DNA from: Stegostoma tigrinum
Lineage: Eukaryota
Reading direction: 5' to 3'
Assembly (NCBI RefSeq): GCF_030684315.1
Contig: NC_081371.1
Span: 24,609,440-24,673,439, forward strand
DNA: 64,000 nucleotides
Part shown: positions 1 to 63,990 of the stretch, piece by piece
Numbering within the stretch: the stretch's first letter is position 1
Layout: each line of letters starts with the position of its first letter
Notes under the pieces: model-generated
Database searches by the model: none
The model's input: only the letters and a program-made list of their open reading frames with translations
Told to the model about the DNA's origin: nothing
Made by a program: the position numbers and the translations under genes

Positions 1-1104
1 CTTTTTACGTCCACTTGTCAAGACCCCTGTATCTTGTATGTTTCAGTTGTTATTTCTTACTCTTCCAAATTCTAGGGACACAAGCCTAGCCTGTTCAACC
101 TTTCCTCATAAAACAATCCTTCCATTCTAGCTATTAATCTAGTAAACATTCTCTGAGCAGCTCCCAATGCATTTACATCCTTCCTTAACGACAGAGACCA
201 AAAATGTAATCAGGAATATGACACTTAGGAGCTGGTAAGTTAGTATATTTTCGTAACCTTCTCCCATTCCAGTGAGCTGTAGACTTTCAGCATTACAGAT
301 TTGCTAGACAAAGGTTAGCAGGTTTCCCAGTACATCACAACCTTACATGCTTGAGGATTGACCTGTAAACACAGTTTGAATTAGAAATGCAATTCTTGAG
401 TTTCCTGGAACTTTATTGAACATTTCATTACAAATTAATTGATTCCTCACAATGTTTGCACAGAGAATCAGCGTTAAAACTTCAGGCCATCATGGTGGTA
501 GGTCATCAACCTGAAACATTAACTCTGTTTCTCTTCACAGATGTGCCTAACTTGATGGATAGTCATTTGTGTAGGCCTGAGAAAATATACCAATAACAGA
601 TCCCAGATATCTCATAGTGATGTTGGATGTGATATAAACTGACCAGGATATCAGAAATCCCCTATACTGCGCCAAGCAAAAGTAACAGTATCTTATGCTT
701 ATTTGAGAGGGCAAACAAGTCCTCAATTTAAATCTCCTTCGAAAGACAGCAGCACCTCAATATCAACTTGGAACGTGGCTTGAACTATGGATCACATAAC
801 TTGGCTATCAAGCATCACTGGTTTTGCCTGTAAGGGAGCTCAGTGTGCACATAAAATGGGTGTGAAGTCCATCTCCATTGACTAGTGAAGGAGCCTGTGC
901 AGTTCATCATCTTGGGAAGCATGAGGCTGCAGGATTCTGTGTATGTGTGAGAAACAACAATGGGCTGATTACATCAGCTGCAGTTTCATCTGATCTGACA
1001 TGTTACTTAGACGTTGCAGGTGCTGTTCATGCTCTGTCTTAAACATGCACAGCTATGGGAAGCCCAAACAGTTCAAAAATAAATTAACACAGCTTCCAGG
1101 TAAG

Positions 1105-1273
1105 AGATAGTAAGAACTGCTGATGCTGGAGTAACGCAGTGTGGAGCTGAGTGAACACAGCAGGCCTGGCAGCATCAGAGGAGCAGGAAAGGTGAAGTTT
1201 TAGGTTGGGACCCTTCATCAGAAATTTCTGAAGCTTTCCTGCTCCTCTGATGATGCCTGGCCTGCTGTGTTCC
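1105..1273. mobile_element. Mini PLE hairpin insertion (inverted pLTR ends, degenerate HHR)
   Basis: Inverted arms gaacacagcaggcc..gcatcagaggagcaggaaag; TSD tccaggtaag at 1095-1104 and 1274-1283. Confidence 0.7.
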
Positions 1274-1399
1274 TCCAGGTAAGCCATTTTTCACTTTCAC
1301 TAACACTGCCCTGACGAAAGGGAGCATTACTTTGTGGTTGCAGATTGTGTTGGAATAAAATTCGGCTGCTGTTGATGTCCCACAATACCTCTATAAGAT

Positions 1400-2210
1400 C
1401 ATAAGTCATAGGAACATAAGTATGCCATTCAGTCCATCACGCCTGCTCTAGCACTCAAAAAGATCTTGGCTGATCTGATAACCCACAAATCCACTTTCCT
1501 GCCTTTTCCTCATGACCCTTGATTCCTTTACTGATCAGTTTTTTCAGCCTTGAAATTACTAATGACCCAACCTGTACAGCCTTCTTTCATAATGAATTCT
1601 ACAGATTCGCTACTTTCTGAAAGAAATTCCTTCTCATTAAATGTTCAATCCCTTATTCTGAGGTTATGCCTGCTTGTTGTAGACTCTCTGACAAGGGGAG
1701 ATAACTTTCCTATATCTGCCCCATCAAATCGCCTAAGAATCTTATATGTTTCAAAAAGGTTGTGTCTGATTTTTCTCAGCACCAATGAAGACAGGCTCAA
1801 CCTACTCAACGTCTCCTCATAAGACAATCCCTTCCATACCTGGTATCAGCCTAGTGAATCTTCCCTGAACTGCTTCTAGTGCTAGAATATCTTCCCTTAG
1901 AAAAGGAGAACAAAACTCTTCACAATATTCCAGCTGTGGCCTACTAGTTTCAGCAAAATCTCCAAATTTTTACATCCCATTTCCTTTGAAATAGCACTCC
2001 ATTGGCCTTCTATAATACCTGCTGAATTTGTTTGCAAGCTTTTTGTAGTTTGTGCACAAGAAGTCCTAAATCTCGCTGTGCTGTAACTTTCTGCATTTAA
2101 TTAATATTAAACTCCTCTATTCTTCCTACCAAAGTGCGTAGCCTCACATTTTCTTACATTATTCCTTCTGTCAAGTTTTTGCCTACTCACTTAACCTGTC
2201 TGTATCCCTC
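1400..2210 (-). mobile_element. CR1-group LINE 3' fragment
   Basis: MSYEETLSRLSLSSL..LFETYKILRRFD..TSRHNLRIR, typical CR1 ORF2 C-terminus. Confidence 0.75.
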
Positions 2211-2212
2211 TG

Positions 2213-2390
2213 GATAACAAAGTGTGAAACTGGATGAACACAGCAGGCCAAGCAGCATCTTAGGAGCACAAAAGCCTAGGCCCGAAACATCAGCTTTTGT
2301 GCTCCTAAGATGCTGCTTGGCCTGCTGTGTTCATCCAGCTTCACACTTTGTCATCTCAGATTCTCCAGCATCTGCAGTTCCCATTATTTC
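2213..2390. mobile_element. Mini PLE hairpin insertion
   Basis: ~60-bp inverted arms around ctaggcccgaaac; TSD tctgtatccct(c/g)tgga at 2199-2214 and 2389-2404. Confidence 0.8.
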
Positions 2391-2499
2391 TGTATCCCTG
2401 TGGAGTTTTTTTTGTGTAGTCCTCAGCACTTGCCTTCCAACATGCTTTTGTGTCACCTGCAAACTTGGTTAAAGCATGTTCATGTTCCTCATACAATTA

Positions 2500-3000
2500 A
2501 TTAATATTTTTCATGGATGCCTGCTTTTGAGTTGTTAGATCTATTGCATATGTACCCATTTAGCCAGATGATAGTGTCACATAACATGATGGAGGGCACT
2601 CTCAATTGAAGATGGGGTCCACGTGGACTGTTTTGGTGGTCACTCTTATTGATACTGTTATAAACAGTTATATCTGCAGCTGGCAGATTGTTGAGGATGA
2701 GATCAAGTGAATTTTGCCCTTTTGTTGATTCTTCCACGGTCTAGCAGCTATGTCTTTTAGGACTTGACCAGATCAGTCCGTAGTGTTGTTCCTGAGCTAC
2801 TCTTGATGATGTACATCAAGTCTCCCATCAACAGTACCTTGTGAGCCCTTGCCATCTCAGTACCTCCTCCAAATGTTGCTCAAGATCGAAGAGTCATTGG
2901 TTGATGTGGGCAGCAGTACATGAGGTAATCAGCCGGAGGTTTCCATGCCCACATTGGTTAACTAGTCCGCAGGCATTAATAAGGTCAACTTTGCAGAGTC
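2500..3000 (-). mobile_element. LINE endonuclease-region relic
   Basis: TKGQNSLDLIL...SDH motifs. Confidence 0.6.
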
Positions 3001-8384: not shown

Positions 8385-8520
8385 AAGGAATAAAAACTGA
8401 AAGAACTGTGGATGCTGTAAATCAGAAACAGAAGTTGCTGGAAAAGCTCAGCAGGCCTGGCAACAACTGTGAAGAAAAATCAGAGTTAACGTTTCAGGTC
8501 AAGTGACTCTTCCTCAGAAT
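8385..8520 (-). mobile_element. Solo PLE-derived short repeat, second HHR family
   Basis: Minus strand ctgaggaagagtcacttgacctgaaacgttaactctg...cagcatc. Confidence 0.65.
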
Positions 8521-9918: not shown

Positions 9919-10027
9919 CTGAGGAAGCGTCACTGGACCTGAAACGTTAACTCTGAGTTTTCTTCACAGATGCTGCCAGACCTTCTAAGCTTTTCCAGCA
10001 ACTTCTGTTTTTGTTCCTGATTTGCAG
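9919..10027 (+). mobile_element. Solo PLE-derived short repeat, second HHR family
   Basis: ctgaggaagcgtcactggacctgaaacgttaactctg...gatgctgccagacc...ttttccagcaacttctg. Confidence 0.65.
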
Positions 10028-12973: not shown

Positions 12974-13405
12974 ATAGAATCCCTACAGTATGGGAGCAGG
13001 CCATTTGGCCCCTCCCACCCAGACCCAACTCCCTACCCTATTCCTGTAACCCTGCATTTCTCCCATGTCTAACCCATCAAAAAGTCATTCAAAGATTTGT
13101 AGCTCATGTTGTGAATGTGGTTGTTGGCTCATTGTATGATAACCGGCCAGTTCGGCAAGCAAGCCAACAACATAACCCACTTGACCTATACACTCCCAGA
13201 CACTATGGACAATTTAGCATGGCCAATCCACCCAACCTGCACATCTTTAGACTGTGGGAAGAAATCAGAGCACCCAGGAAAAAAAACCCAGGCAGACATG
13301 GGGAGATTGTGCAATCTCCACGTAGACAGTTTAAGGGTGGAATTGAACCTGGGTTCCTGATGCTGTGAGGCAGCAGTGCTAACCATTGAGCCACTGTGCC
13401 ACCCC
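12974..13405 (-). mobile_element. tRNA-derived SINE nested in a LINE, itself interrupted at ~13080-13178
   Basis: A/B boxes at 13340-13400 (minus), tail at 12974-13075. Confidence 0.8.
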
Positions 13406-13501: not shown

Positions 13502-13605
13502 AGAACAAGAACAAAGTTGCTGGAAAAGCTCAGCAGGCCTGGCAGCATCTGTGAAGGTTAAAAACTGAATTAACATTTCGGGTCCAGTAACCCTTCCTCA
13601 GAACA
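13502..13605 (-). mobile_element. Solo PLE-derived short repeat nested in a LINE
   Basis: Minus strand ctgaggaagggttactggacccgaaatgttaa; TSD gtaattggct at 13492-13501 and 13606-13615. Confidence 0.7.
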
Positions 13606-21730: not shown

Positions 21731-24700
21731 CTTAAAAAAAACATAAAAGACTAAATACTTTGAAATCATCCACATTCAAGAACAGTGTTAAATCTTTTTC
21801 TGAAAAATAAGATCTTGCATTACATTTTCAGTTTTAATGTAAATAAACATCTCAGCACACTTCACAGGTATAATCAGATAAAAATTAACATTGAGTTACA
21901 GGTGGGTTAATGGGGGAAGTCGAAGGTAGTGTCCATTATTTTGGTGCTAAGGTGAATTTCAAAGCTGCAAACATAGAATGTTAGAGGGAGGGGACTAGGT
22001 AGTTAAAAACGCAGTGTGATAGTCCACGTGCCTGTGGGGAAAAATTGTCGTGTTTTACTTTGGGATAATCGTCCCTTCAAGAACTAGGTTTCCTGGTAAA
22101 GTTTCTGTATCAAAAGAGTGGGATGAGAGTAAGATTGAGCGAAAGAGATAAGTGAGAGGTGACAGACAGTGAGTGCGCGAGAGAGAGATACAGAGCAGGA
22201 GAGAGAGTTAAGAAATTATTAGTTGGCAAGAGAAAAGCTTAGGGTAAGGGAAAAAAAGAAGAGATCGCAGTTCAAAGGAGAGTTCTGATTCCACTGTGAA
22301 ATTTGATTCAAGTAAAAATCTTAATTTAACATGCCTAAATATACAGAGATGAAGGATATTTCACTCCATTTGGAAAGTTGGCTACGAAGTTGAAGTGCTA
22401 AAAGATGCTTAGTGTTTAATATTGCAGAATGCCCTAACAGGTACAGCTAAAAATGTGAACAGCAGTCTGGTCCCTGAAACTCAATGTAAATTTATGACTA
22501 TAAAGAAACCTAATCTAATCGAACATTTGTAGAGTATGCATGACAGAAAGAAATGCTGTAGGATCAGTGGTTTTAATGACTGGAGAAGAATTGTGTGTGT
22601 GAGGGAAATTATGATTACGGAAAATTCCCAAAATAGTATTTGAGCAACCTTTAAGACTTGTTTAGTGAAGTGTGATGTCAAAAATCCAAAGAGCAGCTGC
22701 TCTGGCGGTCAGCCATGATATCTCACACATTTGGGAAATTGCCATATGGGAATCTACGAGGAATCAGAGGAATAGAAAATATGGGTTGGAAACTGTATTA
22801 GTTTTAGGGAATAAATGGACACCAAAATAAGAAAAGGAGAAAGGTTAAAACTAAGAATTGATGTCAATTAAAGAATTTGCTTCCAATATAATAAGATTGG
22901 GCAAATTGAAGCTAATTGCTAGAAATTAAATGGGAGACGTATACAATTGTAGAAATGGCTAAGGAATTCTAAAAATACTGGGTATTAAACCTGTAGCAGT
23001 GGTACAGAGGACACATGCTCCCTCGGAACCTACAACAAATTGTGATATGGCTCAGGGTAGTCAAGAATTTTCCTTGATTATGCTAGAAAGTGTCAAATTA
23101 CTGGAGGTTCTGGCTATTTTAACTAGAATAAAGTGTTCCCTGGGTTTCCCAACAAAGTAAGTAAACTAAATTACAGAAGACTTTTTTTTTCCTGTAGAGG
23201 CATCCTTATGTCTCTGATCAGTAAGGCAAATTACAAAGATTGTACAGAAAATTTCATTTTCTGTATTTTTGAGTATAGACTAAAATTGAAAAAATCTGTT
23301 TCAAAAACAAGCATTGTCGACTGAATTGTTTACTTTTGAAGCAGGTTACTGAAACTCATTATGTGTGGTGTTGACACTACTCCTTTATTCAGGTGGCATG
23401 GTGGCTCAGTGGTTAGCACTGCTGCCTCACAGTGCCTGGGTCCCCCAGGTTCAATTCCATCCTTGGGTGACTGTCTGTGTACAGTCTGCACGTTCCCTCC
23501 ATGTCTGCGTGAGTTTGCTCTGGTTTCATCCCACAGTCCAAAAGATGTGCTAGGGCTAGGTGGATTGGCCATGGGAAATTGCCTTGTACTGTACAGGGAT
23601 GTGTAGATTAGGTGGGTTATATAGGGGGTTGGATCTGGGTGGGATGCTCTGAGAGTTGGTATGGACTTGTTGGGCTGAAGGGCCAGTTTCCACACTGGAT
23701 GGATTCTATGATTGAAGTGGAGGGGTGAAAGGGAGAAGGATGTTTAAAGGTTCTATGGAAGCGGTGAGCTGTGGATGGTAACATGTTGCTCACTGGTTTG
23801 TGCAACTGTGACCAACCATGGGTGCCAAAGATCATCAGCCTGACAACAGCCCCCCGATTGGCTCCTTAGCATATGAACAGCTTGTGGGTATGAAGATACA
23901 GAGAGGAGACTTTGGACTGTTGAATGTGAGGTTGTGTGTATGTGTCTCTCCCTTTGGAATAAAATATCTGAAGCCTGACAAGAGCCAGTTATTTTCTCTA
24001 GTTGCTGGAAGCTGTTGCTTTTGATAGTAACTAAGAGACTTTGTAGTGAGTCTACCAATCACCTTGTGCCTCCACAGCAACGAGATGAAAGAACCCAGAG
24101 AAAGGAGATTAAAGAACAGAAAGCCAAAGGAACATCTCAGTGAACCCTGTGAACTAGTACTACGGAACGGTGCTTCACATTTTGTCACTCTGCCAATCAA
24201 CCAATGTCTTTTTTGTATGTATGCCTTTGTGCAGTATGCATGTATGCAGGGCTTTATTAATAACATCTTCAAAAACGCCAACAAATTTGTCAAATGTGAT
24301 TTACGATTCGCAAATCCATTGCTGACAATGCCAATCAGATCATTATCAGCTGGATCTATTTATTGTATCCTTTATAAAAGATTCTAGCATTTTCTCTACT
24401 ACTAATGCAAGGCTAACAGGTTTAAGTTTATCTGTTCTCTTTCTCATTCCCTCCTCAAATAGTATGGTGACATTTATTACCTTGGAAACTGCAGGAATCA
24501 TTCCAGAATCTATTGAATTTTGGAAGATAATCACTAATGCATTGGCTATCTCAATAGCCACTTCCTTCAACATTCTGGTGTTTAGGCTATTAGGTTCTGG
24601 GGATTTATCAACTTTCATCCCATCAAGTTCTCATTTTTATGTTATCTATGAAAACTTTTACTTCCCATTTTAAGCTTTTACCAGATCACATTCACATTCT

Positions 24701-36700: not shown

Positions 36701-38602
36701 AACCCATAAATCTGTGAGCTGGGTACTTGAATGGGAATAGTGACAGTCAGTGGGGCTGTTGCTTTGTGGTTTGTTGATAGGAAGGGAAGGAAAGAGAGAG
36801 GATGGTTGAGCTATTGACTGTCTCCTTCATAAGATGTTAAATATTGTGGAACTTTTTGTATCCTGCCAAAAAGGCTTATTTGTTACTTTGGAGAAAACAA
36901 CAGTATCCCAGTTGTCTCCAATGACGAAACTGATGAGTGTTAGATTTCTACTGAAAACAGGTATATGCCTCAAATTCAATAAACACTGAAAAAATTTTAA
37001 CACCAAACAAAGAGTCCAAAGAAGTTATAGTTTCTGCTTTGGTTTGCTTGAGGATTGGGGCTTGTGAGTTTGAGCACAGCCACATGTTTTCCCACCACAA
37101 CAGAGGACTCAGAATTCCTACAGTGTGGAAGCAGGCCATCCAGCTCATTTAGTCCACACCAACCCTCCTAACAGCATCCCACCCGGATGCAAGCCCTACC
37201 CTATTCCTGTAAGTTTACATCTCCCTTGGCTAATCGACTTAACCTCCACGTCCCTGGACACTATGGGCAATTTAGCATGGCCAATTCATCTAACTTGCAT
37301 ATCTTTGGATTGTGGGAGGGAACTGGATCACCCAGAGGAAACCCACACAGATACAAGAGAAAGTGCAAACTCCACACAGATGGTGGATTGGAACTGTGAG
37401 GAGGTAGTGCCAGCCACCAAGCCGTCCTAGAACCTCCACAGACAAACCTGCCTTGCACTTAGAAAAATCAGTTTGACAATTTAAACACATTCAAGAATAT
37501 AAGAAAGCAGTTATAAAGTGTAAACTGAAATTATTGACTACAGCTTAATTATGTGGATCATTTAAGAATACTAGCAAGAAAATGCTAAGTATCAATCCAT
37601 CTTCTGAGAAGAAATCATCTGTAAATTATTCATACAAACAGACTGCAAGAGCATGTAATTTTTGTCCTCTTTTGTCATCAGTAGCTGTTCTCAAACTGTC
37701 ATGATTATTCAATAATTATTTGAGCACATCAATACTGTGATGTAATTTGTAATACATAATCTAATTGTCTGGAAGTTACATGCACAGCTAGTAATTCCTT
37801 CATAGAGTAGAAAGGAAAAGAAAAATTATAAAATACCTCAAGACTAAAAACAAAACCATCTTAAAGAGAGCTCAACACAAAATGCTTTCTGTAAGGTATT
37901 TCATCTGAGGAAGATTGTTACTGAATAGTGTTTTGTTTAATGTTCCAACTTCTTTACAGGGGACCATTTCTTACCTGTACCAGCCTCTTGGTCATACAGA
38001 GATGAAGGAAATGATGTTTGAGGGACTTGAACTGGGAGATCATCCTCCTTTTTGATGCTGATATTACTTATGAAATCTGGTATGGCCACCTTGCCGCTTG
38101 AGTTAGCAACTGTTAAGCATGGATCCTCCTGTAATTCCATGAACTTTTTTCTCCTTTCCAGAAGTGGTGTACAAGGATCATTACTTCCCAAGGACTGGCT
38201 CTGGCGGGAGGAGGAAGGTGCATTACCACTCAAAAGAATAAATTTCTTGGGCCCATTGGAGCCACTCTCTTTCCCCTTTGCTGTGAGTGCTGCTATGATG
38301 CTTTGAAGATCTGCATTTTTAGGAATTAACACAACCTGAGTGTTGGGCAGTGAAGGATGGTTTACAATCCGAATCCTCTCAGGATACTTTTGAGTCTCAA
38401 TGGCTGTGTGTTTCCGAGAGTTTCCCAGGTCATCCTTTGTTGAACAAGTGCTCTCTGTGTCAAAATCTCTAGTCTCGGGTTTGTGTTTACTCCCATCATT
38501 CTTGTCTTCAGGAGGATTCTCCCTTATATCCACTGGATTATTGAATGTGAGGGGACGTTTCCTCCTTTTCAGAATCAGAGGCCTTCTTGGACTGGCCTTC
38601 AT
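20867..38602 (-). CDS. FOXM1: Forkhead box protein M1, spliced CDS join(38602-37975,33678-33530,32600-32442,29468-29340,26822-26765,25956-25757,21730-20867), 2187 nt, ~728 aa
   Basis: Seven exons with GT-AG boundaries and compatible phases (1,0,0,0,1,0). N-terminus [15 protein letters not shown], forkhead domain and C-terminal transactivation motif are all FOXM1-typical. Confidence 0.96.
23392..23712 (+). mobile_element. tRNA-derived SINE
   Basis: ggtggctcagtggttagcactgctgcctcacag...ggttcaattcc; tail ggattctatgatt. Confidence 0.85.
24260..25690 (-). mobile_element. CR1 LINE ORF2 relic (endonuclease to RT start) in the last FOXM1 intron
   Basis: YLNAHSI..IAITE; [18 protein letters not shown]; [33 protein letters not shown]. 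Confidence 0.8.
25757..25956 (-). CDS. FOXM1: FOXM1 coding exon 6
   Basis: [30 protein letters not shown]...[16 protein letters not shown]; 200 nt, donor AAG|gtaatt. Confidence 0.95.
26765..26822 (-). CDS. FOXM1: FOXM1 coding exon 5 (58 nt)
   Basis: ttttag|[19 protein letters not shown]|gtacgt, resembling mammalian QQKRPNPEL; phases match both neighbours. Confidence 0.85.
28020..28470 (+). mobile_element. CR1 LINE 3' relic
   Basis: ggggatttgaaagaggtgttcaaaataatgaggggtctggactgagtagatagagaaaaactgttccca, CR1 C-terminal coding remnant. Confidence 0.6.
29340..29468 (-). CDS. FOXM1: FOXM1 coding exon 4 (forkhead recognition helix)
   Basis: Manual translation [43 protein letters not shown]; 129 nt. 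Confidence 0.96.
30230..30880 (+). mobile_element. LINE 3' relic, same family as 11740-12400 in opposite orientation
   Basis: aactcacctcct..ccatttgcctggat..gggtcaaaatcctggaactc..ctcaccaccacct. Confidence 0.65.
31604..31712 (+). mobile_element. Solo PLE-derived short repeat, second HHR family
   Basis: ttctgaggaagggtcaccagatccgaaat...cagatgctgccagacctgctg. Confidence 0.65.
31905..32225 (-). mobile_element. tRNA-derived SINE with 27-bp TSD
   Basis: Same family as 39862; atattctccaactccttggacaatgca at 31873-31899 and 32228-32254. Confidence 0.88.
32442..32600 (-). CDS. FOXM1: FOXM1 coding exon 3 (forkhead domain, first half)
   Basis: Manual translation [53 protein letters not shown]; 159 nt, AG/GT flanked. 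Confidence 0.96.
33530..33678 (-). CDS. FOXM1: FOXM1 coding exon 2
   Basis: [15 protein letters not shown]...EKENQ (KEN box). Boundaries ttag| and |gtgagt; 149 nt. Confidence 0.93.
35907..36222 (-). mobile_element. tRNA-derived SINE, 5' truncated
   Basis: Homology by eye to the 39862 copy. Confidence 0.8.
37110..37426 (-). mobile_element. tRNA-derived SINE, diverged
   Basis: Homology by eye to the 39862 copy. Confidence 0.75.
37975..38602 (-). CDS. FOXM1: FOXM1 coding exon 1 (N-terminal repressor domain)
   Basis: [15 protein letters not shown]...[49 protein letters not shown]. Acceptor gttgcag| at 38643, donor CAG|gtaaga at 37975. Confidence 0.95.
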
Positions 38603-38784: not shown

Positions 38785-39132
38785 GGGCTGTCGCGGTGGC
38801 TCAGTGGTCAGCACTGTGGCCTCACAGTGCCAAGGAACTGGGTTCAATTCAACCCTTGCATGACTGTGTAAACTCCATACAGATATGCATGGGTTTCTTC
38901 CAGGTGCTCCCGGTTTTCCAACCCACAGTCCAAAGATGCAGAGATTAGGTGGACCCATTATGTTAAATTGCCCATAGTGTTCAGGAATGTGCAGGCTAGG
39001 TGGGATTAGCCATGGGAAATGCAGGGTTACCAGGATAGGGTAGGGAGATAGGCCTGGTTGGCAGTGTCTTCAGAGTGTCTGTGATGACTTGATTAGCTGA
39101 ACGGCCTGCTTCCATACAGTAGGGATTCTATG
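38785..39132 (+). mobile_element. tRNA-derived SINE
   Basis: gcggtggctcagtggtcagcactg, gggttcaattc, tail gtagggattctatg. Confidence 0.82.
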
Positions 39133-39861
39133 CGATGTAATATTTTGATAAAACAATTTGCTTTTTCTATGTAACTAACTGATGTGTAAAGTGAGAAAAC
39201 AGATTCTTGCACCAATTTAGTGCTGGTCAGAATTCAGATGAGCATTATCAATGTTATCAAATTATACCAGAGAAATTGAAAAACAAGAACCCGTGACATC
39301 CAAATTGTTTGTACCAACTAAGCGTTCTCTTCAGTCCCAATTCTTATCTGCACTTCCATTTAGAATATTAAAATAACAATAATATTAATCTTAATCTGCA
39401 CAGATCATCACTGGTGACAAGACTCCAAGTACTCTCAACTTCTTGCACAGGGATTTCAATTTTCAACTGAGCATCACAATCAACATAAATTTCAGAAGAT
39501 TCATCCTTATAGTGAAATGTCTTATGCATTACCCAACCACTTTCTGATTGTCCCAACACATATCGACTTGGTTTTCCATAGCATTTGTCCCAGATGCAAG
39601 ATCTTTTGGAAAGTCATATTGTGTCATAAAAATGGCCTCTATCTAAGTAGTTATATAGTACATTCCCCATAACTCTTGTGCATCTTTCCTTTTACTGATT
39701 TGAAGCTAAGAGGCCTATAGTTTTTTTTCCTTTTTTTTTAAATATTGCAAGAATGTTAATTTCAAATCCCCAATTCTTACAAACAATTAAAGATTTGGGC
39801 CATCTGCTGATGCATTGTTCTATTAATTAAGTGGATAAATAAAAAAGTGAGCTGAAAAATT

Positions 39862-40185
39862 TGGGGCAGCATGGTGGCACAGTGGTTAGCACTGCAGCCT
39901 CACAGCACCAGGGACCCGGGTTCGATTCCAACCTCGGGCAACTGTCTGTGCGGAGTTTGCACATTCTCCCCGTGTCTGCGTGGGTTTCCTCCGGGTGCTC
40001 CGGTTTCCTCCCACAGTCCAAAGATGTGCAGGCTAGGTGGATCGATCATGCTAAATTGCCCGTAGTGTTCAGGGGTGTGTAGGTTATAGGGGGATGGGTT
40101 GGGGTGGGGTGCTTCAAGGGGCAGTGTGGACTTGTTGGGCCGAAGGGCCTGTTTCCACACTGTAGGGAATCTAAAGAATCTAAAA
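39862..40185 (+). mobile_element. tRNA-derived SINE (V-SINE/HE1-like), well preserved
   Basis: A box TGGCACAGTGG, B box GGTTCGATTCC, central ggagtttgcacattctccccgtgtctgcgtgggtttcctccggg domain, LINE-like tail ctgtagggaatcta. Confidence 0.88.
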
Positions 40186-42776: not shown

Positions 42777-43932
42777 ATATGTAAGGTTTTGGAGTAGATT
42801 TGTAGCTCGGGTTGTGGGTGTTGAGGTTGGTTGGCTCGCTGAGCTGGTTTCTTGTGGACAACACCTTTGTCATCATTAAACGGACCAAATTAGAGGAGAT
42901 ACACAAACATATAAACAACACACACCCCAGAATAAAATTCACCAGAGAGGAGGAAAAGAACAAACAGCTCCCATTCCTGAACATCATGGTAGAGCGCAAA
43001 ACAAATGGGGATCTGCAAATGAAAGTACACCGAAAAGGCACACACACAGACCAGGTAGTGAACTTCAACAGTATCCATCCCAGCACACACAAACGAAGCT
43101 GCGTGCGAACACTATTTTAAAAAAGGACAATAACACACTGCAGCAACACAGAACTGGGCCAACAGGAAGAGTACCTCTTCCAGGTTTTCAATGATAATGG
43201 ATATCCAAAAAACTGGGTCAAAAGATGCCTACACGAACAACATTAGAAAGATACCACACTCATCACACTACCCGACATCAAGAACACGTCAGAACTCACC
43301 ACAAGACTCCTACACCGCTAGGTACCAGAGTGGCAGGCAAGTCCACGTCAACCCTATGACAAGTGCTCACCTGAACTAAAAACCCACTCCCTGCCATGGA
43401 CAGGACCAATGTTATCTACAAGATCCCCTGCAGAGACTGTGAGAAACACTACATCGGACAACAGGAAGGAAACTAACAACAGAAGTATATGAACACCAAC
43501 TGACTACAAAAAGACACGACCAATACTCACTCATCTCAATCCACATAGATATGGAAAACCATGACTTCAACTGGGATAACTCAAAATCCTGCTCTTCTGC
43601 GGCTTCGTCTGCTGTGTTCATCCAGCTCTACACCTTATTGTACCAAAATCTTGGGACAAGCTAGGCAGAGACAGGTACAAGAATTCCCAGAAGCTTGGCA
43701 CTCCATGAAGCATGCTATCAATAAACATATTAAACTCGACCCCATATACGTTCCACTATGAAGGAAAATCGGAAATGAGGCAATTCATCTCAATGGACCC
43801 CAGAGTTTTAAAAACCAGGTGGGAGAACACACTGATGCTTCATTGGAGGCTGCAGTGAGGATGTTACCCAGCATGGTAATGAAACGTCTGTGATACAAGA
43901 AACTGGCTCGGCGAGCCAATCAACCTAAATAC
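42777..43932 (+). mobile_element. Decayed Penelope/Poseidon-type PLE fragment (RT C-terminus + GIY-YIG + pLTR with degenerate HHR, short inverted 5' tail) in RHNO1 intron 1
   Basis: VDNTFVII..HINNTHPRIKFTREEEKNKQLPFLNIMV..VHRKGTHTDQ; NVIYKIPCRDCEKHYIGQ near 43408-43460; gtgagga-t-gttacc..ggtaat-gaaacgtc 43854-43888; 42820-42850 is the inverse of 43900-43932. Confidence 0.85.
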
Positions 43933-47422: not shown

Positions 47423-47788
47423 AGTCACTACTGTCTGTAAACTATTAGAATTCTACCTCGTTGATTTGGTTGATTTCAGATGAGCCAATATTGATTTGAA
47501 GGTCATAGCATAAAATGACCTAGAGCCTGGCAAAAAAAAAACTTTGACAATTTGAATTCGGTTGAGTGGTTAATTCAAGAAATGTGAATAATTTACCTGA
47601 TAACTGTTAAGAAGGGAATATATGAAAAATATGTTCCTCTACATGAATCCCTCTATCTTTTCCTCTGCTCCATACTAGTAAAATGAAAAATGACAAGAAA
47701 AACTGGGAAATTAGCCATTTTAACTGGGAAAAACTAGCTATTTTAATGTTATGAATTTCTCTTTTTAAAACTGTGTTCAGGGTGGTGG

Positions 47789-49251
47789 GTGATGACTCCC
47801 CTGTAGTGCAGACAAACCTCCACCCTGCACTGCTCAACTATGTGGCCCCCTCTGCTTTCTAAACTTATGAGAATACAAACCATGTTCACGTGACCTGCAT
47901 TTTCTCATCCTGGTACGATTCTACTGAATTGACACTTCACCTCCTCCAAGGTCAGTGAATCTTTCCCTGAACTGACGTGGTCAAAATGGAGGACCATGTT
48001 TACAAACTTATTTTGATATTTTTAACTGGACATTTTAAGCTGTTTTATTATTATCTCCAAGTGTCCTGAAAAACCTTTTTCTTTATCTATGGTATTCAAT
48101 GTGAGGCTACCATCTCCGACCCTTAACCCAGGTCACTCCACCTATATGCACAAGGATTTCAGATTGCTGGTATGTCCTCTGAACCGGTTCACTTGGCAAT
48201 TTTGATAGTTTGTAGTTCTACTGCCTTTATGGAGGCAGAATTAATGTTAATACAGATTCTGAATTTCCACCTTTTTTAGAAACACTAATTATTAGGAATG
48301 TGGTGTTAAACTGTACACTTGTCTTTGTGTGGACTGGATGTTGCCAAAGGTTTGAATACTCTGCAACTAATAAATAGAAAATTCTTGAATAGAAAAGGAT
48401 TTTCTTCATTCCATTGCTACTTGGAGAAGTGCAGAGAAAGATTTTGGGACATATAGCAGGCCAGAACTGGAGTGTAAAGATTTCAGAGGGTAGTGGTTTT
48501 TGAAGGAAGTGATAGGGTTAAAAACAAAGCAGACACGTTTGAAACTGAGACATTGTTTTTAAGGTCTTATTGAAAATTTGTAGCTCAGATTGTGGATGCC
48601 GTTATTTGTTTGCTAGCCTCGGTTGTTCCATGTAGACGTTTCGTTATCATTTTAGGTAATGTCATCAGTGTGACCTCTAATCGAAGCTTTGGTGTTCTAC
48701 TCGGTTTCAAGTTCAGAAGATCCTCTACCATGGTTCGTCTTGTCACTTCTGGTTCTATTTTTTTTTAGCCGCCGCCTGTATATGGGGTCTATTTCAATGT
48801 GTTTGTTCATGGAGTCCCATATTGAGAACGAGGCCTCCAGAAATTTCCTTCTGTGTTGAACAAGTGAACAACAGACATGCAAGGGACCCAGACTATATTG
48901 ACTGAAGAGTGAAGTAACCCGCCATTCTCCATATAAGTTCCTGGAGCTACCTACAGTGATCATAAATTGTATGCAAGGAAATTAGTGTAACCGTAGGTAT
49001 GGGTAATGGACTTCATAATATCTCTAACCACAACAAATCCAGCACTATGCTATCCTCCATTTTGACCACGTCAGTTCAGGGAACGATTCACTGACCTTGT
49101 AGGAGGTGAAGTGTAAATTCAGTAGAATCGTACCTGAAAATGCAGGTCACGTGAACATGGTTTGTATTCTCATAAGTTTAGAAAGCAGAGGGGGCCACAT
49201 AGTTGAGCAGTGCAGGGTGGAGGTTTGTCTGCACTACAGGGGAGTCATCAC
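47789..49251. repeat. Inverted repeat, ~200-bp arms (47789-47993 and 49053-49251), ~1.06-kb spacer
   Basis: By eye the arms differ by a few substitutions and one ~6-nt indel. Confidence 0.9.
48577..48860 (-). mobile_element. Poseidon-type PLE 3' end with HHR core
   Basis: Minus strand encodes RKFLEA..SMNKHIEIDPIY; CUGAUGA..GAAACGUC at 48635-48668 (stem II partly mutated); terminal gagctacaaat shared with 42777. Confidence 0.75.
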
Positions 49252-49406
49252 AAACCAAGAGGATGCTGCTGAGTACATTGTCTGTATACTACCTAAACAT
49301 TATTTAGCGATTGGGATGATTCTAAGATTCAGGCTGTTGCAGAAAGGATGTGGCATTACCTTTTACTGAAGAAACTGCTCCAAAACAAGGCTTTAATTAG
49401 AATGGA

Positions 49407-50753
49407 GATAACAAGGTGTAGAGCTGGATGAACACAGCAGGCCAAGCAGCATCAGAGCACCAGGAAGGCTGACGTTTTGGGCCTAGACCCTTATTCAGAA
49501 ATGGGGGAGGGGAAGGGGATTCTGACATAGAATAGGGAGAGAGTGGGGAGGTTGATAGAAGATGGATAGAGGAGACTGGTCAAAGAGGTGGGGATGGAGC
49601 CAGTAAAGGTGAGCGTAGGTGTGGAGGGAGGGAGGAGTAGGTCAATCCAGAAAGGACGGACAGGTCAAGGGGACAGGATGAGGCTAGTAGGTAGAAGATG
49701 GGTAGGTAGTAGGGGGTGGGGTTTGAGGTCAGAGGTAGGGGATAGATGGGAGGAAGGAAAGGTTAGGGAGGCTGGGATGAGCTAGGCTGGTTTTGGGATG
49801 GGCAATTTTGAAGCTTGTGAAGTCCACTTGGGAACCCTGCAGCCCAATGGTATCAAAGTGGAATAGGAGTTACTGTTCTTGAAACCTTCGGGTGGCATCG
49901 TTGTGGCACTGCAGGAGGCCCAGGATGGATCTGTCATCTGAGGAATGGGAGGGGAAGTTGAAATGGTTCACGACTGTGAGGTGCAGTTGTTTCTTGTGAA
50001 CTGAGCGAAGGTGTTCTGCAAAGCAGTCCCCAAGCCTCCGCTTGGTTTCCCCGATGTAGAGGAGTCCACAACGGGAACAGGAGTTGCAGAATACCACCGC
50101 AGATGTGCAGGGTTCGCACTAAACAACGGCACTTCTCAGTCACAAACCATTTCAACTCACCCTCCCACTCCTCAGATGACATGTCCACCCTGGGCCTCCT
50201 GCAGTGGCGCAACGATGCCATCCGAACGTTGCAGGAACAGCAACTCATATTCCGCTTGGGAACCCTGCAGCCCAAAGGTATCAATGTGGATTTCACAAGC
50301 TTCAAAATCTCCTCTTTCCCCCTACCACATCCCAAAAGCAGCCCAGCTTGTCCCTACCTCCCTAACCCATCCTTCCTCCCACCTATCCCCTCCTCCCACC
50401 TCAAGCCCCATGCCCATCTCCTACCTACTAACTTCATCCTGCCCCCTTGACCTGTCCGTCCTCCCTGGACTGACCTATCTCCTCCCTACCTCCTCACCTA
50501 CACTCACCTTCACAGGCCCCATCCCCGCCTCTTTGACCTGTCTGTCTCCTCTCCACCTATCTTCTCCTCTATCCATCTTCTATACACATCTCCCTATTTA
50601 TTTCAAAATCCTCTTCCCCTCCCCCATTTCTGAGGAAGGGTCTAGGCCCGAAACGTCAGCTTTTGTGCTCCTTTGATACTGCTTGGCCTGCTGTGTTCAT
50701 TCAGCTCTACACCTTGTTAGCTCAGATTCTCCAGAATCTGCAGTTCCCAATGT
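49407..50753. mobile_element. Older 5'-truncated Neptune-type PLE with inverted 3' end (minus arm ~49407-50090, plus arm ~50110-50753)
   Basis: GIY-YIG fragments on both strands (ORFs 49870..50097 -, 50103..50450 +); pLTR at both ends; degenerate TSD ctttaat(t/g)agaa(t/a)gg. Confidence 0.85.
50624..50661 (+). ncRNA. Hammerhead ribozyme motif in older PLE pLTR
   Basis: ctgaggaagggtctaggcccgaaacgtc. Confidence 0.7.
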
Positions 50754-50768
50754 CTTTAATGAGAAAGG

Positions 50769-53630
50769 CCCTGGCTGAACACCCCACACACCACCCTCAC
50801 CGCAGCTGCTGCCGCCCACCCCGATCCTCCAACCGCCGACGGAACCCCGCCCACGGCCGACGACGACAGAACCCCGCCCACGGCCGACGGAAACCTGCCC
50901 ATGGCCGACGACCTCATCGCTCCGCCCACAACCTCCACAGCCAGCAACCCCAGAGAAGACAGCCACACTGAGCCCTGCCGCATCTTCACCATCCCCCCAG
51001 ACCTCCCACTGACTGAGGACGAACGGTCAGTCCTTAGCAAGGGGCTCACCTTTGTCCCCCTTACAACCACACATCAACGAATACCAGTCACGGTTGGACA
51101 TAGAGCAGTTTTTCCGCCGTCTTCGCCTCCATGCCTACTTCTTCAACCGGGAACCCAACCCTCCTTCCACTGACCCCTTCACCCGCTTCCAACACAAGTC
51201 CTCCTCCTGGACACCACCCCCAGGCCTCCTACCCTCCCTCGACCTCTTCATCGCCAACTGCCGTCGAGACATTAACCGCCTCAACCTCTCCACCCCTCTC
51301 ACCCACTCCAACCTCTCCCCCGCAGAACGGCAGCCCTCCGCTCCAACCCCAACCTCCCCATCAAACCCGCAGACAAGGGAGGCGCAGTGGTAGTATGGTG
51401 CACTGACCTCTACATCGCCGAGGCCAGACGCCAAATCTCCGACACCACCTCCTACCGCCTCCTCGATCATGACCCCACACCCGAGCACCAAACCATCATC
51501 TCCAACACCATTCACGACCTTATCACCTCAGGGGACCTCCCACCCACAGCCTCCAACCTCATTGTTCCCCAACCCCGCATGGCCCGTTTCTATCTCCTTC
51601 CCAAAATCCACAAACCTGCCTGCCCTGGCCGACCCATCGTCTCAGCCTGCTCCTGCCCCACCGAACTCATCTCCACCTATGTGGACTCCATTTTCTCCCC
51701 TTTGGTCCAGGAACTCCCCACCTACGTCCGTGACACCACCCACGCCCTCCACCTCCTCCAGGACTTCCAATTCCCTGGCCCCCAACACCTCATATTCACC
51801 ATGGACGTCCAGTCCCTGTACACCTGCATTCCGCATGGAGATGGCCTCAAGGCCCTCCGCTTCTTCCTGTCCCGCAGGCCCGACCAGTCCCCCTCCACCG
51901 ACACTCTCATCCGCCTAGCTGAACTCGTCCTCACACTCAACAACTTCTCTTTTGACTCCTCCCACTTCCTACAGACTAAGGGGGTGGCCATGGGCACCCG
52001 CATGGGCCCCAGCTATGCCTGCCTCTTTGTAGGTTACATGGAACAGTCCCTCTTCCGCACCTACACAGGCCCCAAACCCCACCTCTTCCTCCGGTACATT
52101 GATGACTGTATCGGCGCCACCTCTCGCTCCCCAGAGGAGCTCGAACAGTTCATCCACTTCACCAACACCTTCCACCCCAACCTTCAGTTCACCTGGGCCA
52201 TCTCCAGCACATCCCTCACCTTCCTGGACCTCTCAGTCTCCATCTCAGGCAACCAGCTTGTAACTGATGTCCATTTCAAGCCCACCGACTCGCACAGCTA
52301 CCTAGAATACACCTCCTCCCACACACCCTCCTGCAAAAATTCCATCCCCTATTCCCAATTCCTCCGCCTCCGCCGCATCTGCTCCCACGATAAGACATTC
52401 CACTCCCGCACATCCCAGATGTCCAAGTTCTTCAAGGACCGCAACTTTCCCCCCACAGTGATCAAGAACGCCATTGACCGCGTCTCCCGTATTTCCCGCA
52501 ACACATCCCTCACACCCCGCCCCCGCCACAACCGCCCCAAGAGGATCCCCCTCGTTCTCACACACCACCTTACCAACCTCCGGATACAACGCATTATCCT
52601 CCGACACTCCCGCCATTTACAATCCGACCCCACCACCCAAGACATTTTTCCATCCCCTCCCCTGTCTGCTTTCCGGAGCGACCACTCTCTCCGTGACTCC
52701 CTTGTTCGCTCCCCTGCCCTCCAACCCCACCACCTTCCCCTGCAACCGCAGGAAATGCTACACTTGTCCCCACACCTCCTCCCTCACCCCCATCCCAGGC
52801 CCCAAGATGACATTCCACATTAAGCAGAGGTTCACCTGCACATCTGCCAATGTGGTATACTGCATCCACTGCACCCGGTGCGGCTTCCTCTACATTGGGG
52901 AAATCAAGCGGAGGCTTGGGGACCGCTTTGCAGAACACCTCCGCTCAGTTCGCAACAAACAACTGCACCTCCCAGTCGCAAACCATTTCCACTCCCCCTC
53001 TCATTCTCTAGATGACATGTCCATCATGGGCCTCCTGCACTGCCACAATGATGCCACCCAAAGGTTGCAGGAACAGCAACTCATATTCCGCCTGGGAACC
53101 CTGCAGCCATATGGTATCAATGTGGACTTCACCAGTTTCAAAATCTCCCCTTCCCCTACTGCATCCCTAAACCAGCCCAGTTCGTCCCCTCCCCCCACTG
53201 CACCACACAACCAGCCCAGCTCTTCCCCCCCACCCACTGCATCCCAAAACCAGTCCAACCTGTCTCTGCCTCCCTAACCGGTTCTTCCTCTCACCCATCC
53301 CTTCCTCCCACCCCAAGCCGCACCCCCATCTACCTACTAACCTCATCCCACCTCCTTGACCTGTCCGTCTTCCCTGGACTGACCTATCCCCTCCCTACCT
53401 CCCCACCTACACCCTCTCCACCTATCTTCTTTACTCTCCATCTTCGGTCCGCCTCCCCCTCTCTCCCTATTTATTCCAGTTCCCTCTCCCCACCCCCCTC
53501 TCTGAGGAAGGGTCTAGGCCCGAAACGTCAGCTTTTGTGCTCCTGAGATGCTGCTTGGCCTGCTGCGTTCATCCAGCCTCACATTTTATTATCTTGGATT
53601 CTCCAGCATCTGCAGTTCCCATTATCTCTG
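50769..53630 (+). mobile_element. Penelope-like element, Neptune-type, near full length: RT + Cys linker + GIY-YIG endonuclease + 3' pLTR; frameshifted
   Basis: SVLSKGLTFVP, FYLLPKIHK, GRPIVS, MDVQSLYT, GVAMGTRMGPSYA, RYIDD, CNRRKCYTC, NVVYCIHCTRCGFLYIGE..RFAEH. Frame breaks near 51060, 51330 and 52710. Confidence 0.93.
53496..53533 (+). ncRNA. Minimal type I hammerhead ribozyme motif in PLE pLTR
   Basis: CUGAGGA-A-GGGU-CUAG-GCCC-GAAAC-GUC; palindromic ACGU in place of a full stem III. Confidence 0.75.
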
Positions 53631-53644
53631 ATACTATCGGCTGA

Positions 53645-56644: not shown

Positions 56645-56936
56645 TGGTTCAATTTCAGCCTTTGGTGACTGTCTGTGTGGAATTTGCACGTTTTCACTGT
56701 GTCTACGTAGGTTTCCACTGGGTGCTCCGGTTTCCTCCTGTAGTCCAAAGATGTGCAAGTTAGGTGGATTGGTCATGCTAAATTGCCCTGTAATGTCCAG
56801 GGATGTGTGGGTGTGGTGCATTAGCCATGGTTAATGTGGGGCTATGAGGATGGAGTGGGTCTGGGTGGGATGCTCTTGGAACGGTTAGATTTGATGAGCT
56901 GATGGCCTCTGTCTGCATTGTAGAGATCCTATGATT
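56645..56936 (+). mobile_element. tRNA-derived SINE lacking the A box
   Basis: Starts at B box ggttcaatttc; central domain and tail present. Confidence 0.78.
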
Positions 56937-59900: not shown

Positions 59901-61029
59901 CATGGGTCTCAGAGTCACTGACTTGAGGGATGCTAAGGAGTGTAAATCAGTTTTTAGCCATGGGTATGGAGGAAATCCCCTAAAGCTTCAGAAATTCATA
60001 TTTTCTATGTACTATTGCAATAATTTTCTTGAATGTCAAATTTAAGTTGTTTGAAGTTTAATTATGATCTTTGTTTTAGCTTTCAGTGTAATTTGCTCCA
60101 TATTTCCTTTTTGTCTGTTTTGTATTATGTCTTCTATCATCCCTTTGCTATACACTCTTGTTGCCCTCAGCAAGCAGTGTAGAAGTTGAAAGTATATGTA
60201 GGCATGGATGAGCAAAAGAAAGACGTTAAAGGTTTCTGAGAATATTGTCAGTTAGCAGTCTTGCTTTGTTTTTATAAATCTAATGTTTTTCATGATATAT
60301 AATTTCAACTTTGCTAATATAAAGATGTTTTAAATGTATTGGAAAAGATAGATATCATCTGAGTAGTAAAATCTTGTTTTGTGCTTTGCAAATATGTGCA
60401 AAATATTTTCATTGCAGAGGAAATACAAATAATTTAATAGCTATAATGTACTCTTCAATATGAAGACTTTTGTGTAATGCCCAAAAATGATGGTGTTTGC
60501 ATCTGGGTAGACTTTGGGACTAATTGTTTAAATTGTATGCTTCAACTTAAAGGTTAAGAAAAGTAATGTAGCAGTCTACTTGTAGCTCATCAGTCTTGTA
60601 TTATTATTGTTCTGTGGCTCATGTGAAGATTGTCTTATAGAGCTCCATGGATTATTTCTCAATCTTCACAAGTTAATTGGATTATTGACAATAGTTCATG
60701 TTTAGTATTAGTGACGTTAACCAAATGTTGTGTAATTTGTTATATTTGAGCTTGTTAACTGTCGCATTCTTTTGTGGTTCAATTTTTACATTTAATAGAT
60801 TTGTACTATAGTTTGTACCATATTCTTTTTTGGGATCGTTAGTTGGCTTGCAATCAATGAGGGGCATACAGAAGATCATTAATTTATTTGTAGCAAATAA
60901 TTTCTGGTGCTCCAAAAGCATGTTGTCCAATTTAGAGATAATGGGAACTGCAGATGCTGGAGATTCCAAGATAATAAAATGTGAGGCTGGATGAACACAG
61001 CAGGCCAAGCAGCATCTCAGGAGCACAAA

Positions 61030-61067
61030 AGCTGACGTTTCGGGCCTGGACCCTTCATCAGAGAGGG
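61030..61067 (-). ncRNA. Hammerhead ribozyme motif, inverted copy
   Basis: Reverse complement of the 62557-62594 motif. Confidence 0.75.
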
Positions 61068-62556
61068 GGATGGGGGGAGGGAACTGGAATAAATAGGGAG
61101 AGAGGGGGAGGCGGACCGAAGATGGAGAGTAAAGAAGATAGGTGGAGAGGGTGTAGGTGGGGAGGTAGGGAGGGGATAGGTCAGTCCAGGGAAGACGGAC
61201 AGGTCAAGGAGGTGGGATGAGGTTAGTAGGTAGCTGGGGGTGCGGCTTGGGGTGGGAGGAAGGGATGGGTGAGAGGAAGAACCGGTTAGGGAGGCAGAGA
61301 CAGGTTGGACTGGTTTTGGGATGCAGTGGGTGGGGGGGAAGGGCTGGGCTGGTTGTGTGGTGCAGTGGGGGGAGGGGATGAACTGGGCTGGTTTAGGGAT
61401 GCAGTGGGGGAAGGGGAGATTTTGAAACTGGTGAAGTCCACATTGATACCATATGGCTGCAGGGTTCCCAGGCGGAATATGAGTTGCTGTTCCTGCAACC
61501 TTCGGGTGGCATCATTGTGGCAGTGCAGGAGGCCCATGATGGACATGTCATCAAGAGAATGGGAGGGGGAGTGGAAATGGGAGAGGAAAAGAGGATCCCC
61601 CTCGTTCTCACACACCACCCTACCAACCTCCGGATACAACGCATTATCCTCCGACACTTCCGCCACTTACAATCCGACCCCACCACCCAAGACATTTTTC
61701 CATCCCCACCCCTGTCTGCTTTCCGGAGAGACCACTCTCTCCGTGACTCCCTTGTTCGCTCCACACTGCCCTCCAACCCCACCACACCCGGCACCTTCCC
61801 CTGCAACCGCAGGAAATGCTACACTTGTCCCCACACCTCCTCCCTCACCCCCATCCCAGGCCCCAAGATGACATTCCACATTAAGCAGAGGTTCACCTGC
61901 ACATCTGCCAATGTGATATACTGCATCCACTGTACCCGGTGCGGCTTTCTCTACATTGGGGAAACCAAGCGGAGGCTTGGGGACCGCTTTGCAGAACACC
62001 TCCGCTCAGTTCGCAACAAACAACTGCACCTCCCAGTCGCAAACCATTTCCACTCCCCCTCCCATTCTCTTGATGACATGTCCATCATGGGCCTCCTGCA
62101 CTGCCACAATGATGCCACCCGAAGGTTGCAGGAACAGCAACTCATATTCCGCCTGGGAACCCTGCAGCCATATGGTATCAATGTGGACTTCACCAGTTTC
62201 AAAATCTCCCCTTCCCCCACTGCATCCCTAAACCAGCCCAGTTCATCCCCTCCCCCCACTGCACCACACAACCAGCCCAGCCCTTCCCCCCCACCCACTG
62301 CATCCCAAAACCAGTCCAACCTGTCTCTGCCTCCCTAACCGGTTCTTCCTCTCACCCATCCCTTCCTCCCACCCCAAGCCGCACCCCCAGCTACCTACTA
62401 ACCTCATCCCACCTCCTTGACCTGTCCGTCTTCCCTGGACTGACCTATCCCCTCCCTACCTCCCCACCTACACCCTCTCCACCTATCTTCTTTACTCTCC
62501 ATCTTCGGTCCGCCTCCCCCTCTCTCCCTATTTATTCCAGTTCCCTCCCCCCATCC

Positions 62557-62594
62557 CCCTCTCTGATGAAGGGTCCAGGCCCGAAACGTCAGCT
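62557..62594 (+). ncRNA. Minimal type I hammerhead ribozyme motif (canonical CUGAUGA core)
   Basis: CUGAUGA 62563-62569, stem II GGGU/GCCC, GAAAC-GUC 62583-62590. Confidence 0.78.
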
Positions 62595-63867
62595 TTTGTG
62601 CTCCTGAGATGCTGCTTGGCCTGCTGTGTTCATCCAGCCTCACATTTTATTATCTTGTCCAATTTAGATTTTCTTTTACTGAACTTGAGCCATCATTAGC
62701 GGAGGATTGCATTATTCCAGTTGCGCCATTATAACTTATGTTTCTAGTTGAGCACAAATGGCAGTGAACCTATGCAGTTGCCATGTGATAGAATCTGCAG
62801 AATAAAGTCATCAGATTACAAACTCAGGCATTGTTCACGGAGATTGTCCTCTGAATAATCCCCGATAATTATTAGCCTGCTTTCATAGTGCCTGGTAACT
62901 AGCTGGAACCACAACAGTAAACATAGATACCTAGAAGTTAAGTGGCCCTTGTGCTCTTACAAATCTTACAATGAAACATCAAATAGATGTCATTTTGAAA
63001 ACTATTTTGGCTCTGCCTAAACTAATTTTCATATTTGATTTTTTTTTAAACAATAACTGTTTAAATGCCTTATTCTTATCTTAATTGTATGAGGATATTT
63101 AATGACGGCAGTTGGTGTGTTGAAGAACATTTTAAGGATTAAGCATTCCTTATTTTCACAACTTGATAAATCAGTTTCATTTGTATTTACTGGAACCCAA
63201 TCAGATGTACATTACGGTGCTTTTTGATCAGTTTACATACATCACAGTGTTAGTTTTGGCTAACATGGCTCATTGTTGGGGACTAGATGTGAGATGCTGT
63301 AAATGTTCAGCATTACATTGTCAATACAGATATGGCAGGATCTTGGGCTGGGATATTTGACTTCCTGATGCTGATGCTCAAACCAAGTTCTGCAGTGATA
63401 GAGAATATGCATTTCTGCATGTGAAGTTATTCCTCAGTGTGGAATATTTGTATGAGATTGTTAGTATAAGCTTCCTAATGAAGACTTGATTGCCTTTGTC
63501 TTGGGGAAGCAGGGCTGGACAACTTTCAAAATCAAAAATAAATGCTGCTAGCATTGGATCTGCACTAAATACTTGTTCAACACCTCAATGAGTATCTTCT
63601 CCATCTCTCGGTCTCTATTTCCCCCACCTTTTTCCCCATTAAAAAATTTCCCCCTATCCACTAGAGGGTAACTTTAACATTACCAATTATTCTGCTTGCT
63701 GCCACTTTAAAGTAAGTTATAACAGCAAAGCTACTTTCTGCAAATTATCTTAACTCTGGTTATCTGTGACTTTATTCACCAAAATAAAAAGATTAGTAAT
63801 ATTTTCAATGTTTGAAATTGAGATGTTTTCTCAAATTCTTGAACAGTGCTAGTAGCATTTCTGTATT

Positions 63868-63990
63868 AGAGATAATGGGAACTGCAGATGCTGGAGAATC
63901 CGAGACAACAAAGTGTGGAGCTGGATGAACACAGCAGGCCAAGCAGCATCTTAGGAACACAAAAGCTGACATTTTGGGCCTAAGAAGAAA
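63868..63990 (-). mobile_element. Neptune-type pLTR end (may continue beyond the window)
   Basis: agagataatgggaactgcagatgctggagaatcc...gctggatgaacacagcaggccaagcagc, same tail as 60934. Confidence 0.8.

Follow-up and report, generated by a model that had tools for sequence, protein, structure and literature searches.

How does a retrotransposon come to insert as two outward-facing copies of its own 3' end, one of them carrying a short tail that the other lacks? The question is raised by a 64,000-nucleotide stretch of Stegostoma tigrinum (NC_081371.1, positions 24,609,440 to 24,673,439 of the forward strand; the whole of it is called the window below), in which a Penelope-like element (PLE) with a predicted hammerhead is present as inverted insertions flanked by target-site duplications (TSDs). 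A preliminary description, made from the letters alone, reported four such insertions, each built of two ends of the pseudo-long terminal repeat (pLTR), and all four are indeed where it placed them. It was also postulated that both target strands prime on the RNA's 3' end. The analysis presented here keeps the first part of that idea and drops the second. With a probability of roughly two in three, both target nicks prime reverse transcription on one PLE RNA, at a "short" and a "long" site about 36 nt apart and both internal to the RNA, and inverted insertions result. This reading is supported by a near-absolute rule of one short and one long end per insertion, by an equal excess of microhomology and an A-rich signature at both ends, and by work on an anole PLE (PMC11167929).

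The rule was counted in an unbiased sample of the genome (1.34 Mb, as 134 stretches of 10 kb) and in a second set, made up of 200 kb of unbiased sequence plus loci picked by pattern, the latter biased to young copies. Outward-facing adjacent pairs numbered 91, including 4 from the window; the 77 joined by contiguous element sequence were kept and 14 were dropped, which leaves 73 outside the window. End calls in the unbiased sample are bimodal. In window-equivalent coordinates, the median short end lies at 53593 with a standard deviation (SD) of 2.3 nt, in a short-end window at 53589..53599 (plus strand) that contains the first TTATCT motif, and the median long end lies at 53629 (SD 4.1 nt); the tail and long-end window (53595..53638, plus strand) takes in the second TTATCT and a few nt of the downstream leader. 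Among the 73 pairs, 63 combine a short with a long end, 1 is short/short, none is long/long, and 9 have one atypical end (p 3.5e-18 for the short/long excess in the 64 typed pairs). The proportion is 51 of 56 in pairs with a TSD, and in the second set it is 27 of 35, or 21 of 25 with a TSD, none of these 25 being long/long or short/short. The one-long-one-short rule is near absolute. A TSD score of at least 8 was reached by 59 of the 77 contiguous pairs versus 2 of 300 shuffled pairings, and TSD length is 13-16 bp in 54 of 67 insertions (range 10-19). Neither randomly placed termini nor a general lack of TSDs, which the preliminary description had named as refuting outcomes, was seen. Its two fixed TTATCT registers, however, have to be given up: the ends are windows, and short and long positions within one insertion are uncorrelated (rho -0.10, p 0.40, n=67). 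A fixed short-to-long spacing was tested within insertions and not found, nor was a link of spacing with TSD length.

The two ends meet the target in the same way. Microhomology was scored on clean junctions, 14 of 67 short and 20 of 67 long ends being excluded for non-templated or mutated bases; its mean is 1.72 nt at short ends (null 0.80) and 1.60 nt at long ends (null 0.72), values that 0 of 2000 permutations reached. The commonest value is 1 nt; 20 of 53 clean short and 20 of 47 clean long junctions share at least 2 nt, so that the overlap of 2-4 nt described earlier is not the rule. In addition, A occupies the positions at -8 and -7 from the nick in 81 and 72 of 134 cases, respectively, against a background of 30%. 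Because this enrichment lies 7-8 nt outside the TSD at both nicks, the target preference is weak and symmetric. Unpaired ends were also considered. Of 140 testable ones, 36 have a TSD near the 5' boundary; about 12 of these, by eye, face a very short arm of the complementary end type on the other side, and the remainder are single-arm insertions, which end at either site.

Within the window, three of the four insertions first described do have one tailed and one short end, as had been claimed (the inverted insertions are given without strand). The mini-hairpin at 2213-2390 (2199..2404) has its short end left and its tail right, within a 16-bp TSD with one mismatch (2199-2214/2389-2404). The old insertion at 49406-50755 (49391..50768) has the same arrangement, a 15-bp TSD with two mismatches (49391-49405/50754-50768), and arms that are 78% identical. 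In the young insertion at 60934-62657 (60923..62668), the tail is left and the short end right, the 14-bp TSD is exact (60923-60936/62655-62668), there is 3-nt microhomology at both ends, and the arms are 100% identical over 607-614 bp. The fourth, a mini-hairpin of an old subfamily at 1105-1273 (1095..1283; exact 10-bp TSD, 1095-1104/1274-1283), is an exception to the layout: its left arm is tailed, and its right arm comes to a stop some 17 nt ahead of the short site, at a point that falls within a 5-nt overlap with the TSD. A fifth inverted insertion begins at the window's edge (63854..64000, minus strand), with a TSD copy at 63854-63867 and a tailed left arm from 63868; the other TSD copy, together with the short right end, is found about 830 bp past the window, the TSD being 14 bp with one mismatch. 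Two single-arm copies, both on the plus strand, complete the set. One is a short-ended pLTR stub (43582..43653) with a possible 10-bp TSD that has one mismatch and is under the TSD threshold. The other is a 5'-truncated copy (50778..53638) whose long end lies about 9 nt beyond the tail and which has a possible 7-bp TSD (50773-50779/53639-53645); it is a younger insertion adjoining the 49406-50755 element.

This long copy identifies the family. Its open reading frame (ORF) is broken, with a reverse transcriptase (RT) piece at 51276-52823 and the endonuclease in a different frame. It encodes an RT (PF00078, E 4.5e-6) and a GIY-YIG-type endonuclease (PF01541, E 0.015, which misses the cut-off). 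As in endonuclease-positive PLEs, a single ORF holds the RT and then a C-terminal GIY-YIG endonuclease with a CCHH motif, and insertions are inverted 5'-truncated copies with a TSD and an optional tail of 30-40 nt. Furthermore, the linker between the two domains is of the form CX4CXXC (linker and endonuclease, 52729..53121, plus strand), and the positions of GIY and YIG have two cysteines between them, an architecture of the Neptune/Nematis type; a CX2-5CXXC zinc-finger-like linker is given for Neptune and Nematis (PMC8557442). Judged by its sequence, the element is an endonuclease-positive PLE, and it is abundant. In the 3.2-Gb genome, 234,483 sites match a 27-nt pLTR word exactly (the genome-wide word and junction counts given here are all of exact patterns), the 134 unbiased stretches contain 302 pLTR ends, which extrapolates to about 700,000 genome-wide, and element bases make up at least 7.5% of the bases in those stretches. 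Four copies (L165, L168, L169, and L186) have a partial tandem upstream of the ORF, in which a pLTR and tail in the same orientation run on beyond the tail into the leader and the start of the ORF. Since these tandem copies read on past the tail, both termini are internal RNA positions rather than the RNA 3' end. When the pLTR and tail were folded as RNA, z was close to 0 for all 4 stretches, and thus no special structure at the priming sites is indicated. The pLTR holds a candidate minimal type I hammerhead motif at 53502..53533 (plus strand; CUGAnGA, stem II, GAAAC, and GUC), found by motif scan, with stem II present in the fold and cleavage a prediction; an Rfam search of the pLTR for a hammerhead returned nothing at the gathering score and only chance matches by E-value. 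Other features of the family include near full-length copies in head-to-head pairs, both arms of which extend to the 5' region of the ORF (L171/L172 and L174/L175), and a short repeat of variable number in the N-terminal region of the ORF (window 50840-50910 and L165-L194), which codes for a linker rich in Thr, Ala, Asp, and Pro.

The commonest inverted form is very small. Mini-hairpins, pairs with anchors within 200 bp, account for 52 of the 73 pairs, or by extrapolation about 120,000 in the genome. The preliminary description suggested that the smallest might be self-propagating, retrozyme-like units, and proposed that shared inner breakpoints would mark such units and unique ones one-off products. 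Among 63 inner junctions examined, 43 were clean, and all 43 are distinct; many inner junctions carry 1-6 nt of microhomology or a small filler. The exact junction of the 2213-2390 hairpin recurs in 12 genome copies; these belong to several subfamilies, and six of them are tailed on the right and six on the left. Given the distinct junctions and the tail on either side, mini-hairpins are repeated one-off products. They lack the internal structure shared by descent that is typical of miniature inverted-repeat transposable elements (MITEs), and their arms are head-to-head rather than the head-to-tail units, each with a hammerhead, of retrozymes.

Of 298 arm starts, 107 lie 70-84 nt above the anchor and only 1 lies at 85-94. 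This 5' wall (53494..53502, plus strand) has its mode at 53499, 3 nt before the hammerhead core. The modal inner breakpoint has a TATA-like box (53468..53474, plus strand) 31 nt upstream of it, and a spacing of about 31 nt from TATA box to start is usual. Of the 68 copies that extend far enough upstream, 65 have the box, 56 of them at -35/-34 from the core, a conservation that partly reflects descent. The Penelope transcript begins in the upstream pLTR (PMC2377424). It is therefore likely, as far as sequence can tell, that the wall at 53499 is the RNA start and that mini-hairpins are run-offs at the 5' end of the mRNA. Another pLTR family in the window, also with a hammerhead motif, consists of single-arm stubs of about 100-130 bp (8391-8519, 9919-10023, 13503-13604, and 31604-31736); all four start just 5' of the hammerhead core, at the same 5' wall, and two have 10-bp direct repeats at the edges (by eye).

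A second, rarer breakpoint lies at the hammerhead itself. The predicted cut falls after 53529, and the 5' end of the downstream product would open with the palindrome AGCU. Perfect symmetric hairpins centred on AGCT at this position number 783, compared with 71 centred on ACGT 4 nt upstream, 148 on CTAG in stem II, and 24 on GGCC downstream (patterns of 22 nt each, which cover the subfamilies unequally). Twenty of the 783 were read: they come from several subfamilies with variable outer ends, 14 have an exact TSD of at least 8 nt, one is long/long, and one has a very short second arm. Among the first 100 listed cut-site matches, 61 are symmetric hairpins, and starts on one side only exceed the control by a factor of about 1.2 at the cut (hand count, first 100 listed of each). 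A symmetric excess is the pattern expected when one cut RNA is copied by both primers. Cut-site hairpins form a small group, their exact matches amounting to well below 1% of inverted insertions, and their excess hints at hammerhead cleavage in vivo. At L275, the right arm restarts twice exactly at the AGCT of the predicted cut, likely through a template jump.

Taken together, these results have led to the following model. The element's protein would nick the two target strands at positions about 13-14 bp from each other. Both nicks would prime on a single RNA, one using the short site and the other the long site about 36 nt downstream. The two cDNAs would then run to the RNA 5' end, where the trailing RT may displace the leading cDNA and the two be joined head-to-head. 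With an mRNA begun in the pLTR as template, both cDNAs would stop within about 100-135 nt, leaving a dead mini-hairpin; with a hammerhead-cut RNA, both would stop at the cut and could anneal through the terminal AGCT; long arms would derive from read-through transcripts. The fuller claim, that one RNA is primed twice, that most insertions are 5' run-offs of mRNA, and that the hammerhead cleaves in the germ line and its product inserts, may be right or wrong with about equal chance.

Use of a single RNA is suggested by a comparison of arms, which are discordant at 67 of 562 diagnostic sites (12%), versus 49% for random pairs and 6% at invariant sites. Low discordance indicates that the arms are mostly of one source, and private variants (L257, L273) and private tandem junctions (L041, L082) are common to both arms. 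Several observations weigh on the other side. The lack of correlation between short and long positions is perhaps unexpected of a rigid dimer on one RNA. Some arms are discordant (7 of 10 sites at L031:806, 5 of 11 at L052:4615, and 4 of 12 subfamily-diagnostic sites in the window insertion at 49407), and in long pairs the arms are each other's closest match among the sampled copies in 11 of 20 cases, with 3 ties and 6 that are not. Arm identity can be explained by a single source locus or by gene conversion. Two of the 35 pairs in the second set are long/long, both without a TSD, and L265, a long/long hairpin with differing arm variants in which no TSD was found, is a possible two-template product. 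Rather than a transcription start, the wall might mark a fixed stop for the RT, and in the local sample 6 of 86 arm starts fall at 46-49, a small cut-site peak. Finally, for the anole element, it is reported that the RT start is not homologous to the cut DNA, that no RNA-seq reads end at the hammerhead cut, and that cleavage is dispensable in vitro (PMC11167929).

Some of these points would be equally at home in a scheme in which the two primers use separate RNAs, one per subunit of an asymmetric dimer, drawn from the same or co-active loci. Uncorrelated positions, the few discordant pairs, and L265 would follow, and strand displacement would not be needed. Nevertheless, the excess at the hammerhead cut is mostly of symmetric hairpins, with little gain in one-sided starts; cut RNA is rare, and therefore two independent templates would seldom both be cut. 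Together with the private tandem junctions found in both arms, this makes two RNAs rather unlikely. Another scheme needs a single primer: a target-primed cDNA would snap back, copy itself, and be resolved by the endonuclease so as to leave the tail (PMC3846280, PMC8557442). Identical arms and palindromic centres are accounted for, and 8 of the 43 clean junctions are symmetric within 3 nt. However, shuffles expect 5.2 (p 0.13), so that no general excess of symmetric hairpins was found among these junctions. In addition, the tailed arm should reach at least as far 5', yet it is the longer arm in 17 of 43 junctions and the short arm in 21; on this count self-priming fails, the short arm being the longer no less often. 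With equal microhomology and the same target signature at both ends also to be explained, snap-back is highly improbable.

The mini-hairpins might instead be secondary. Long palindromes are unstable, and the microhomology and filler at many inner junctions would suit long inverted insertions that later became shorter when the centre of the palindrome was deleted at short repeats. Such deletion would give no sharp wall common to single-arm copies, and it predicts that CTAG and ACGT, both closer to the centre, should have at least as many symmetric junctions as AGCT, whereas theirs are 5- and 11-fold rarer; it is accordingly considered very unlikely. Self-propagation of the smallest hairpins as a non-autonomous family, MITE-like or retrozyme-like, might be thought to follow from their very high copy number, their majority among the pairs, and one junction that recurs 783 times. 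That junction, in the 20 copies read, spans several subfamilies with variable ends, no two clean junctions agree, the 2213 junction has its tail on either side, and the hairpins are without the downstream ORF region that binds protein in the anole element (PMC11167929). Self-propagation can hardly be credited. Twin priming on one RNA is retained as the most probable account.

Much of the layout is familiar. An inverted pLTR, a TSD, and a one-sided tail of 30-40 nt are already published for PLEs (PMC3846280, PMC8557442), and in vitro the protein of an anole PLE nicks and extends both strands; reverse transcription starts from two internal sites between which the tail lies, and a dimer is predicted (PMC11167929). 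The insertion layout and tail origin are therefore already described; the counted rule, the wall, and the cut-site excess are what is added. A literature search, mostly without subscription papers, did not find PLE mini-hairpins, a counted one-tail rule, the wall, or hammerhead-cut breakpoints. Adineta Pen2a and Penelope of D. virilis (PMC3846280, PMC8557442, PMC2377424) likewise have inverted 5'-truncated copies with a TSD and often a one-sided tail, palindromic inner junctions, and a pLTR hammerhead, the last being a candidate in the Stegostoma family. This family differs in that the inverted form met most often is just about 110-270 bp long, lacks an ORF, and has copies put at 100,000 or more, and its TSD is 13-16 bp rather than the 8-10 bp of the Adineta examples (PMC3846280). 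Poseidon of Anolis carolinensis (PMC11167929) shares the two tail-bounding RT starts, the nicking and extension of both strands, and a hammerhead just upstream, the last two as predictions for the Stegostoma family. The Stegostoma element, in contrast, has the CX4CXXC linker, which is absent in Penelope/Poseidon, and its ORF begins after the tail rather than inside the hammerhead; its junctions show a weak microhomology excess, and genomic traces suggest hammerhead-cut templates.

Non-long terminal repeat retrozymes (PMC7229834; bioRxiv 10.64898/2026.07.22.740005) are also non-coding, hammerhead-bearing, PLE-derived, and flanked by a long TSD, but they are head-to-tail units from circular RNA, whereas mini-hairpins are head-to-head one-offs. 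Two inverted insertions (L041:6765-8434 and L082:4984-6183) have arms made of head-to-tail repeats of 443 bp and 301 bp, respectively, the unit being pLTR, hammerhead, tail, and ORF leader; from the junction, these arms were likely copied from circular RNA and would be retrozyme-like. A spreading retrozyme family was considered for the L082 unit and rejected, as it has 5 matches at 2 loci only. Finally, L1 twin priming, as reportedly set out by Ostertag and Kazazian in 2001, is said to have both target strands prime on one RNA and to yield an inversion with junction microhomology. The two L1 cDNAs reportedly cover different parts of the RNA; in the Stegostoma PLE a single stretch would be copied twice, from sites 36 nt apart, and here the inversion is the majority outcome.

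The window also holds repeats of other kinds. A 211-bp inverted repeat, 94% identical and unrelated to the PLE, lies at 47783-47993 and 49053-49257, about 1.06 kb apart, and is possibly a DNA transposon or a local inversion-duplication. A dispersed family of about 150-320 bp, with copies 65-92% identical (13172-13405, 23392-23708, 31916-32232, 35909-36220, 37111-37380, 38794-39132, 39856-40174, and 56646-56859), is probably a short interspersed element or the end of a long interspersed element.

The family bears on how PLE insertion is completed, of which the work on the anole system leaves the later steps unvalidated (PMC11167929), and on whether minimal hammerheads act in vivo. Here, hundreds of thousands of junctions give predictions at the level of single bases: an RNA start at about 53499, hammerhead cleavage at 53529/53530, a pair of priming windows separated by 36 nt, and a stagger of 13-14 bp. 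Mini-hairpins could, in addition, be mis-annotated as MITEs. If the reading is true, the hairpin junctions would constitute a genome-scale fossil record of PLE RNA priming, 5' ends, and hammerhead cleavage.

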